Of a DNA stretch of 62,509 nt, positions 60,001-62,509 are shown piece by piece. This stretch comes from Escherichia phage vB_EcoP_phi349: the sequence record PV189405.1; one strand, given 5' to 3'. The position numbers were made by a program. How positions within the stretch are numbered: the stretch's first letter is position 1; each line of letters begins with the position of its first letter.

Positions 60001-62509
60001 AAGAAGATAAGCGCAAGGCTGCGAGAGGTGAATAATGCCTCCATCATTACGAAAAGCCGTTGCTGCTGCTATTGGTGGCGGAGCAATTGCTATAGCATCA
60101 GTGTTAATCACTGGCCCAAGTGGTAACGATGGTCTGGAAGGTGTCAGCTACATACCATACAAAGATATTGTTGGTGTATGGACTGTATGTCACGGACACA
60201 CCGGAAAAGACATCATGCTCGGTAAAACGTATACCAAAGCAGAATGCAAAGCACTCTTGAATAAAGACCTTGCCACTGTCGCCAGACAAATTAACCCGTA
60301 TATCAAAGTCGATATACCGGAAACAACGCGCGGCGCTCTTTACTCATTCGTTTACAACGTGGGTGCTGGCAATTTTAGAACATCGACGCTTCTTCGCAAA
60401 ATAAACCAGGGCGATATCAAAGGCGCATGTGATCAGCTGCGTCGCTGGACATACGCTGGCGGTAAGCAATGGAAAGGCCTGATGACTCGTCGTGAGATTG
60501 AGCGTGAAGTCTGTTTGTGGGGGCAACAGTGAGCAGAGTAACCGCGATTATATCCGCTCTGATTATCTGCATCATCGTCAGCCTGTCATGGGCGGTCAAT
60601 CATTACCGTGATAACGCAATCGCCTACAAAGTCCAGCGCGACAAAAATGCCAGAGAACTGAAGCTAGCGAACGCGGCAATTACTGACATGCAGATGCGTC
60701 AGCGTGATGTTGCTGCGCTCGATGCAAAATACACGAAGGAGTTAGCTGATGCGAAAGCTGAAAATGATGCTCTGCGTGATGATGTTGCCGCTGGTCGTCG
60801 TCGGTTGCACATCAAAGCAGTCTGTCAGTCAGTGCGTGAAGCCACCACGGCCTCCGGCGTGGATAATGCAGCCTCCCCCGACTGGCAGACACCGCTGAAC
60901 GGGATTATTTCACCCTCAGAGAGAGGCTGATCACTATGCAAAAACAACTGGAAGGAACCCAGAAGTATATTAATGAGCAGTGCAGATAGAGTTGCCCATA
61001 TCGATGGGCAACTCATGCAATTATTGTGAGCAATACACCCGCGCTTCCAGCGGAGTATAAATGCCTAAAGTAATAAAACCGAGCAATCCATTTACGAATG
61101 TTTGCTGGGTTTCTGTTTTAACAACATTTTCTGTGCCGCCACAAATTTTGGCTGCATCGACAGTTTTCTTCTGCCCAATTCCAGAAACGAAGAAATGATG
61201 GGTGATGGTTTCCTTTGGTGCTACTGCTGTCTGTTTGTTTTGAACAGTAAACGTCTGTTGAGCACATCCTGTAATAAGCAGGGCCAGCGCAGTAGCGAGT
61301 AGCATTTTTTTCATGGTGTTATTCCCGATGCTTTTTGAAGTTCGCAGAATCGTATGTGTAGAAAATTAAACAAACCCTAAACAATGAGTTGAAATTTCAT
61401 ATTGTTAATATTTATTAATGTATGTCAGGTGCGATGAATCGTCATTGTATTCCCGGATTAACTATGTCCACAGCCCTGACGGGGAACTTCTCTGCGGGAG
61501 TGTGCGGGGATAATCAAAAACGATGCACACCGGGTTTTCTCATTTTTCACGAGATGGGAGCGATTTCCCGCGAAGCCGCCTGTCCGGTGCGGTGGTGGAA
61601 GAAACCGGATAAAACAACCGCATTGTGCAAATATCGATCAAATATGGTGCTGCTGTGTGAAATCTGAAAAATCACAGCGGTCATTATGCATCAGTTTTTA
61701 ACACAGGACGTCAGAACGTGACATGGCAAAGCTGGACTGGAAAAAGCTGGAGCAGGCATTCCGACGCGAACATGCCGAAACGGGAATAACATTACTGGAC
61801 TGGTGCCGGAAGAAAAAGATTAATTACAACACCGCCAGAACCCGTATAAAAATGGGCAAAATCGATCATGAAATTGATCATAAAACCGATCATGAAATCG
61901 ATCATGACATCTCAGATGAAGAACCCTGCAATGACGCGGGTTCCGGCGATGAAAAATGCGCAAAAAACTCTGAAAAAAACTGCGCAAATTCGGCAGAAAC
62001 GAAACGGATTCGTGGTTCCCGACTTTTACCACCTTCAAACGCTTTTTCTCAGCGAAACACCCACGCCGTAAGACACCGTGGATATGCGAAGTATCTTGAG
62101 GCAGATAACCTCATGGATGATGCGTCCGACATGGTGCTGTTCGATGAACTGGTGTTCACCCGGGCCCGCGCACTTTCAGTAACTAAGGCACTTAAAGGGA
62201 TGTTCGCCGACCTGGAAGAGGCAACTGACGTGGAAACCCGTGTTGCTCTTTACGACAAAATACTCAAAGCTGAACAGGCCCTTGACCGGAATATTGCCCG
62301 TATCGAGTCAATTGAACGCTCATTGCTGACGCTGGACGTCCTGGCTGAGACAGCACCAAAACTTCGTGCTGACCGGGAAAGAATCAACGCCGCCAGAGAT
62401 AAACTCAGAGCTGAAACCGATATTCTGACCAGCCAGCGTCGGGGCGTTGTTACGCCTGTCAGTGACATCGTGTCATCGCTGCATGAAATGAGTAATTCGG
62501 GGAGACTGG

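Follow-up and report, generated by a model that had tools for sequence, protein, structure and literature searches.

Near the right end of the genome of Escherichia phage vB_EcoP_phi349 (PV189405.1), whose entire stretch of 62,509 nucleotides was analysed and is referred to here as the window, lies a lambda-type spanin locus in which the reading frames of Rz and Rz1 are, as deposited, exchanged at a run of five cytosines. The locus is an ordinary embedded two-component spanin with the rzpD/rzoD allele of the Escherichia coli K-12 prophage DLP12, situated 3' of a P21-type holin gene and the gene for an RrrD endolysin. The open reading frames (ORFs) as read, the run itself and the full extents of the two genes are as follows.

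60529..60930, + strand: Rz (i-spanin) ORF as read, GTG start, 133 residues; residues 1-117 are RzpD and 118-133 the Rz1/RzoD tail (Pfam, translation).
60749..60898, + strand: Rz1 (o-spanin lipoprotein) ORF as read, 49 residues; Pfam Rz1 PF06085 positions 1-25 of 41, E=7.9e-10.
60875..60879, no strand: C5 run, the site of the frame swap; T+C5 in the window.
60529..60989, + strand: full extent of the rzpD gene; intact 153-residue product if the run is C6, with the tail frame read.
60749..60930, + strand: full extent of the rzoD gene; intact 60-residue product if the run is C6.

Positions 60870-60885 read AGCCT-CCCCC-GACTGG, which places the C5 run at 60875-60879; the run length and the frames are a deterministic reading of the deposited consensus sequence and not a statistical pattern, and chance is not at issue. 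Residues 1-117 of the Rz ORF, which has an alternative upstream GTG start at 60517, are identical to K-12 RzpD, and residues 118-133 are the final 16 residues of Rz1/RzoD. The Pfam matches are divided in the same way: Phage_lysis PF03245 positions 1-90 of 126 lie at residues 29-117 (E=1.3e-34), the last 36 positions of this profile are absent, and Rz1 PF06085 positions 24-40 of 41 lie at residues 116-132. Translation and the Pfam split thus agree with an earlier note on this sequence, which described an Rz that follows lambda Rz and then takes the Rz1 tail at the run. The premature end of Rz1 that it reported is also present: the ORF has a signal peptide and an LVVVGC lipobox and is correct to residue 44, after which it reads TGRHR and stops (...QPPPTGRHR). 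As the same note had it, the C-terminal tail expected of Rz is encoded just downstream in another frame; this tail has 36 residues and lies at 60879-60989. The note's proposal that one added C would restore both spanins was borne out by an in-silico repair yielding a 153-residue Rz and a 60-residue Rz1 that are 100% identical to MG1655 RzpD and RzoD. The two genes swap frames because Rz1 is contained within Rz in the +1 frame and one base is lost in the overlap.

In other respects the locus has the composition of an embedded spanin, with an i-spanin carrying a hydrophobic N-terminus and a periplasmic coiled-coil domain (PF03245), an o-spanin lipoprotein gene in the +1 frame inside the i-spanin gene, and a position directly 3' of the holin and endolysin genes. 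The C-termini as read are not intact, Rz diverging after residue 117 and Rz1 after residue 44, and both are regained once one C is added. We also note two minus-strand ORFs (38 and 63 residues) that fall wholly within the overlapping spanin genes and the short stretch before the bor gene.

Lambda has the same layout, with Rz1 wholly inside Rz in the +1 frame and the pair located 3' of the holin and endolysin genes. The window is about 97% identical to lambda in nucleotide sequence over Rz, the few substitutions being DLP12 alleles, and both have the N-terminal transmembrane domain and coiled coil of Rz and the lipobox of Rz1. Relative to lambda, however, residues 118-153 of Rz, which make up its CC2 and C-terminal domains, are missing as read, and so are residues 45-60 of Rz1. 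Lambda with a nonsense mutation in Rz is lysis-defective for codons up to 152, and Rz1 can be shortened no further than to residue 55; lambda thus requires Rz as far as residue 152 and Rz1 at least as far as residue 54 (PMC5295617). Because the C-terminal regions of lambda Rz and Rz1 are essential (PMC5295617), the two ORFs as read would be null.

A comparison of the run across relatives shows where the window departs from them. DLP12 and lambda read GCAGCCT-CCCCCC-GAC (T+C6), Shiga toxin (Stx) phages of the PA2 type read GCAACCGG-CCCCC-GAC (GG+C5), with the same length and frame as T+C6, and the window reads GCAGCCT-CCCCC-GAC (T+C5), which is one base shorter than either parental type. The earlier note had held that a frame defect would be refuted if reference members of the phage family shared the C5 arrangement and were functional. 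PA2-type Stx phages do carry C5, but it is preceded there by GG, the length is unchanged, and Rz and Rz1 stay in frame, so that this condition is only half applicable. Since GG+C5 preserves both length and frame, C5 by itself is not diagnostic; it is the combination T+C5 that is one base short.

The context of the run is a mosaic. The last 22.5 kb of the window match Stx2a phages of the species Oslovirus PA2 at 99.6-99.7% identity, in two pieces, and the closest record is vB_EcoP_phi346 (PV189404), from the same study of phages from clinical enterohaemorrhagic E. coli (EHEC). Compared base by base, the window has the sequence of the PA2-type phages phi346 and F765 up to 59980 and again over 60875-62509, and it equals MG1655 DLP12 over 59964-60991 with one C in the run as the sole difference. 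The segments defined by this comparison, and the two lysis genes upstream of Rz, are as follows.

59964..59980, no strand: left crossover interval; 17 bp common to PA2-type phage and K-12 DLP12, inside the holin gene.
59981..60874, no strand: minimum extent of the DLP12-derived patch (894 bp); 3' end of essD, rrrD, and the 5' parts of rzpD and rzoD.
60875..60991, no strand: right crossover interval; 117-bp block alike in both parents except for run length, at the 3' end of Rz.
59820..60035, + strand: class II (P21-type) holin gene S, chimeric; Pfam PF04971 positions 1-63 of 64.
60035..60532, + strand: endolysin gene, 165 residues; Pfam Phage_lysozyme, E=1.3e-45; identical to MG1655 RrrD.

The patch stands in place of an R-ant-Rz region of about 1,939 bp in the PA2 type, which leaves phi349 1,045 bp shorter than phi346. 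In PA2-type phages the replaced region holds R (177 residues), small ORFs, the anti-repressor gene ant, and their own Rz/Rz1; it gives no alignment with the window over 60020-60584 and shows 67 differences over 60585-60874. The holin joins a PA2-type N-terminal part to the C-terminal tail of DLP12 EssD (...KIKEDKRK... versus ...KIREDRRK...), and on the bor side the DLP12-specific single-nucleotide polymorphisms (SNPs) that begin at 60992 are absent from the window. Nucleotide identity to the K-12 allele identifies the imported genes as the DLP12 lysis module essD-rrrD-rzpD/rzoD: at 99% identity or above to the 911-bp patch, all five sampled records come from laboratory strains of K-12, four of them at 100.0% and the fifth at 99.9%, and the alleles that come next do not exceed 97.3%. 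Once its run length is set aside, the DNA is 100% identical to DLP12 over the whole of 59964-60991, as are the repaired proteins. The Rz/Rz1 of phi349 is therefore the rzpD/rzoD allele of K-12 DLP12 and not the phage family's own, although its present carrier is an infectious Stx2a phage and not a cryptic prophage, and its flanks (the 5' part of the holin gene, bor and the terminase genes) are of the PA2 type.

The stock of phi349 was obtained by spontaneous induction, plaque purification and amplification on E. coli K514, a K-12 strain (PMC12502783). The phage most likely recombined with the DLP12 prophage of this host during propagation, although the place of the event is something that we infer. 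The sibling phages phi345, phi346 and phi419 lack the patch and all retain S-R-ant-Rz, no K514 phage is found among the matches listed at 99% identity or more to the window's Rz segment, and term searches of the phage study gave no occurrence of DLP12 or of spanin (PMC12502783). A naturally circulating mosaic variant is unlikely because the same mosaic was sought in 50,697 phage records and 5,426 complete E. coli genomes and was found in none.

The recombination adds a new case to a known process; ant has been lost in it and the holin has become chimeric, and it is news for the phi349 genome even if the kind of event is familiar. Historical lambda qsr' and p4 substitutions are similar replacements. 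Lambda recombinants that replaced R and Rz with DLP12 sequences on MG1655 are viable; the exchange of their lysis genes on K-12 took place by homologous recombination despite divergence of the two sequences (De Paepe et al. 2014, PMC3945230). Here, in contrast, the recipient is an Stx2a podophage that encodes an exonuclease/RecT-like module, just 17 bp make up the left crossover block, and the event was neither selected nor noticed by the authors of the phage study.

The way in which the genome was determined bears directly on the run. Sequencing of phi349 was by Nanopore only (rapid barcoding, Flongle, Guppy 7.1.4 SUP), with no short-read polishing described and Sanger work only for phi296, phi315 and phi367 (PMC12502783). 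In about 60 kb aligned with PA2, containing 14 SNPs, there are exactly three one-nucleotide indels besides the Rz run: an additional A at 17747, a G5 to G4 contraction at 21899, and a G6 to G5 contraction at 22449. All three break ORFs that are intact in PA2. The extra A (TAATAACG, versus TAATACG in phi346, PA2 and F765) cuts a conserved 148-residue ORF (17450-17896 in phi346) to 104 residues and is probably a sequencing error. The ORF for a 2,793-residue virion protein with an LPD5 domain, which PA2 has intact and which is annotated at the same length in F765, is split by the two G-run contractions into ORFs at 19465-22323, 21921-22463 and 22490-27883; two frameshifts in a virion gene are unlikely for a plaque-forming phage. 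The sibling Nanopore assembly of phi346 is also miscalled at the 22449 G6, and the 21899 site overlaps a Dcm motif (CCAGG).

A census of homopolymers in the backbone gives the same picture, in that none of 256 A/T runs of five bases or more is changed, whereas one of 59 G/C 5-mers and one of ten G/C 6-mers are, both contracted by one base. At the Rz site, likewise, a G/C run is shorter by one base in an assembly made from Oxford Nanopore Technologies (ONT) reads only, with similar contractions elsewhere in phi349, but the case differs from the motif-associated class of Nanopore error in that no Dam or Dcm motif overlaps the run.

The same contraction recurs in other records. An identical C6 to C5 change is present in lambda OR974322 and OR974321, in PhiR30_1 and PhiR63_2, in the C600 assembly CM181231, and in FDAARGOS_1058. 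OR974322 has no other indel relative to J02459 over 48.5 kb, and the remaining differences are Sam7 and a block of 5 nt where a 3.46-kb 3'-end fragment begins; OR974321 is that 3.46-kb lambda 3'-end fragment with Sam7, starting near lambda 45,034, and has the same frame-swapped Rz. Both records are given as lambda isolates from chicken cloacal swabs. Such a pattern would suit ONT control DNA better than environmental phage. Three K-12-type assemblies (JBROXR, JBROXP and JBROXQ) combine C5 with one-nucleotide deletions at GATC and CCWGG sites, a methylation-associated Nanopore signature, and in JACXYN and SRR12298796 C5 stands alongside many homopolymer deletions. The exact 133-residue frame-swapped product occurs in 44 contigs and the intact 153-residue form in at least 1,000; the window's own 76-mer is present in 3 of 4,438 matching E. 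coli records. C6 is present in another C600 assembly (CP031214) and in the K-12 strains sampled, and the NCBI Prokaryotic Genome Annotation Pipeline (PGAP) marks the C5 rzpD as frameshifted in C600 CM181231 and in FDAARGOS_1058. Long-read errors appear to recur at the C6 tract of Rz/Rz1 and to create annotations of a frameshifted rzpD in many E. coli and lambda records.

The earlier note had posed a sequencing indel and a genuine spanin defect as the two alternatives; these were the right ones, and the evidence favours the former. The missing C is most likely a sequencing artefact and not a mutation, and the frame swap is most probably absent from the phage itself. The proposed course of events is that the phage, while being purified and grown on K514, would have exchanged about 0.9 kb of its lysis cassette with DLP12, by crossovers in the 17-bp identity block within the holin gene and the 117-bp identity block at the 3' end of Rz, so placing K-12 rrrD and rzpD/rzoD where phage R-ant-Rz had been. 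The true imported segment would then carry the normal C6 tract and encode intact RzpD and RzoD, and the Nanopore-only consensus would have under-called C6 as C5, with the apparent result that Rz gains the Rz1 tail and Rz1 meets a nearby stop. The phenotype is in keeping with this. The need for spanins was first recognised under conditions in which millimolar divalent cations stabilise the outer membrane (PMC6116005), and phi349 was purified as plaques and amplified until lysis was confluent, with 10 mM CaCl2 in the medium (PMC12502783). The media named are a low-salt O157 medium with 10 mM CaCl2, or Mueller Hinton (PMC12502783). Plaquing and lysis under 10 mM CaCl2 argue against a real spanin defect, and a genuinely spanin-null phage is unlikely.

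Several observations weigh against an under-call. The three G/C runs of seven to nine bases in the phi349 backbone were called correctly. Four records, CABEEF (an NCTC strain), CM181231 (C600), SRR28534685 and DRR677356, differ from MG1655 at this site alone over the 3.7-6.5 kb compared, and a further 49 kb of CM181231 holds just two coding sequences flagged as frameshifted, one of which is ybcY, a known K-12 pseudogene. That CM181231 is a generally error-ridden assembly is ruled out over these 49 kb; either an error confined to this site or a real allele accounts for its C5, and a genuine C5 allele may exist in some K-12 or C600 stocks. For most of the comparison records the platform is undocumented and was read from error signatures. 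Moreover, DLP12-specific sequence gives way to shared sequence precisely where the base is missing, and PA2 natively has C5 there, so that a slip associated with recombination is conceivable.

If the missing base is real in the phage, it would reflect either slippage in the C6 tract after DLP12 was acquired or an out-of-register right-hand join of the DLP12 T to the PA2-type C5, and the result would be an Stx2a phage without both spanin subunits. The position is suggestive, since the last DLP12-specific base is 60874 and the run begins at 60875, at the edge of the heterology; the C5 of the native allele would supply the shorter run, and the phage encodes an exonuclease/RecT-like recombination module of a kind that tolerates divergence (PMC3945230). 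By our reasoning, however, an in-register crossover or mismatch correction can yield only T+C6 or TG+C5, and both are rejected as the source of T+C5; a real event would therefore require an additional slip. A phage lacking spanins should also plaque poorly on 10 mM CaCl2 medium, three other ORF-breaking one-nucleotide indels occur in the same assembly, and the same change is found in unrelated assemblies with no recombination junction, all of which make a deletion in the phage improbable. The alternative that the DLP12 of K514 was already frameshifted in rzpD/rzoD, and that the allele was inherited through a right crossover 3' of the run, is a distinctly improbable one. K514 is a C600 derivative. 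The C600 assembly CM181231 has C5 as its sole indel in 6.5 kb relative to MG1655, and the run is C5 in FDAARGOS_1058 too; lysis genes in a cryptic prophage are, besides, not under phage-type selection. Against an inherited allele, the C600 assembly CP031214 and the sampled strains of K-12 have C6, other K-12 assemblies with C5 show ONT error signatures, and plaque purification in the presence of Ca2+ would select against a recombinant that had imported a null spanin.

Two further explanations concern the patch and the run respectively. Preparations of phage DNA hold some host DNA, and both the holin gene and the 3' end of Rz are similar enough to DLP12 to mislead an assembler, such that contaminating K514 reads might have been merged into the phage contig and no true recombinant would exist; this would account for the context of the patch and not for the length of the run. 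It is nevertheless highly improbable, since removal of 1,045 bp including ant is a structural change beyond what polishing creates, long reads of purified phage DNA should exceed host reads many-fold, and the breakpoints fall in identity blocks as homologous recombination predicts; the assemblies stated to be ambiguous are those of phi296, phi315 and phi367, and not that of phi349 (PMC12502783). That the C tract is instead a slippage-prone switch toggling both spanins, by programmed frameshifting or phase variation, could be argued from the alternation of C6 and C5 in lambda, DLP12 and other lambdoid records. The recurrences, however, track long-read error signatures, the frame-swapped products lack regions shown to be essential (PMC5295617), and the intact form outnumbers the frame-swapped one by more than 20 to 1; on the error signatures and the lost essential regions we reject a switch, which is scarcely credible. 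There is a slim chance that the missing C is real and the tract a slippage hotspot that disables both spanins at once, recurring in lambda, DLP12 and other lambdoid elements, with phi349 forming plaques in 10 mM Ca2+ without spanins. This would imply another route through the outer membrane, or a junction-associated mutational mechanism in recombination between phage and prophage.

Since we favour an under-called run, the frame swap should not be presented as a spanin defect of an Stx phage. In the public record of phi349, single-base errors probably break ORFs at no fewer than four sites: 17747, 21899, 22449 and 60875-60879. The deposited genome is probably also not that of the native EHEC prophage, having endolysin and spanin genes from the K-12 propagation host and no ant, and caution is warranted in inferring the lysis biology or mosaicism of Stx phages from phages amplified on K-12. 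The value of these observations is as a correction to the public record and a caution on Nanopore-only phage genomes.

The bor gene 3' of the lysis cassette is of the phage type:

61021..61314, - strand: bor lipoprotein gene, PA2-type allele; Pfam Lambda_Bor.

Between bor and the gene for the small terminase subunit is a small ORF that is labelled "Rz-like spanin" in phi346, phi345, phi419 and PA2; it spans 22468-22713 in phi346, corresponding to about 61420-61670 of the window, and is not part of the lysis cassette. The label seems to have been carried over from one annotation to another.

Among the other differences from PA2, a 9-bp unit (ACTGGCTGA) at 29787-29795 is present in one copy more than in PA2. 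The same is true of phi346, and because the extra copy is common to both, it is probably a real tandem-repeat difference. An IS629-like element of 1,310 bp at 32380-33689, which has TGAACCGCCCCGG as terminal inverted repeats and is accompanied by a target duplication of AAC, sits at codon 12 of a gene for a ParD-family orphan antitoxin, which is described as present in phi349 (PMC12502783). The same element is found in the opposite orientation at 34987-36296 in phi346, in a methyltransferase gene in PA2, and in a gene of the structural region in F765.

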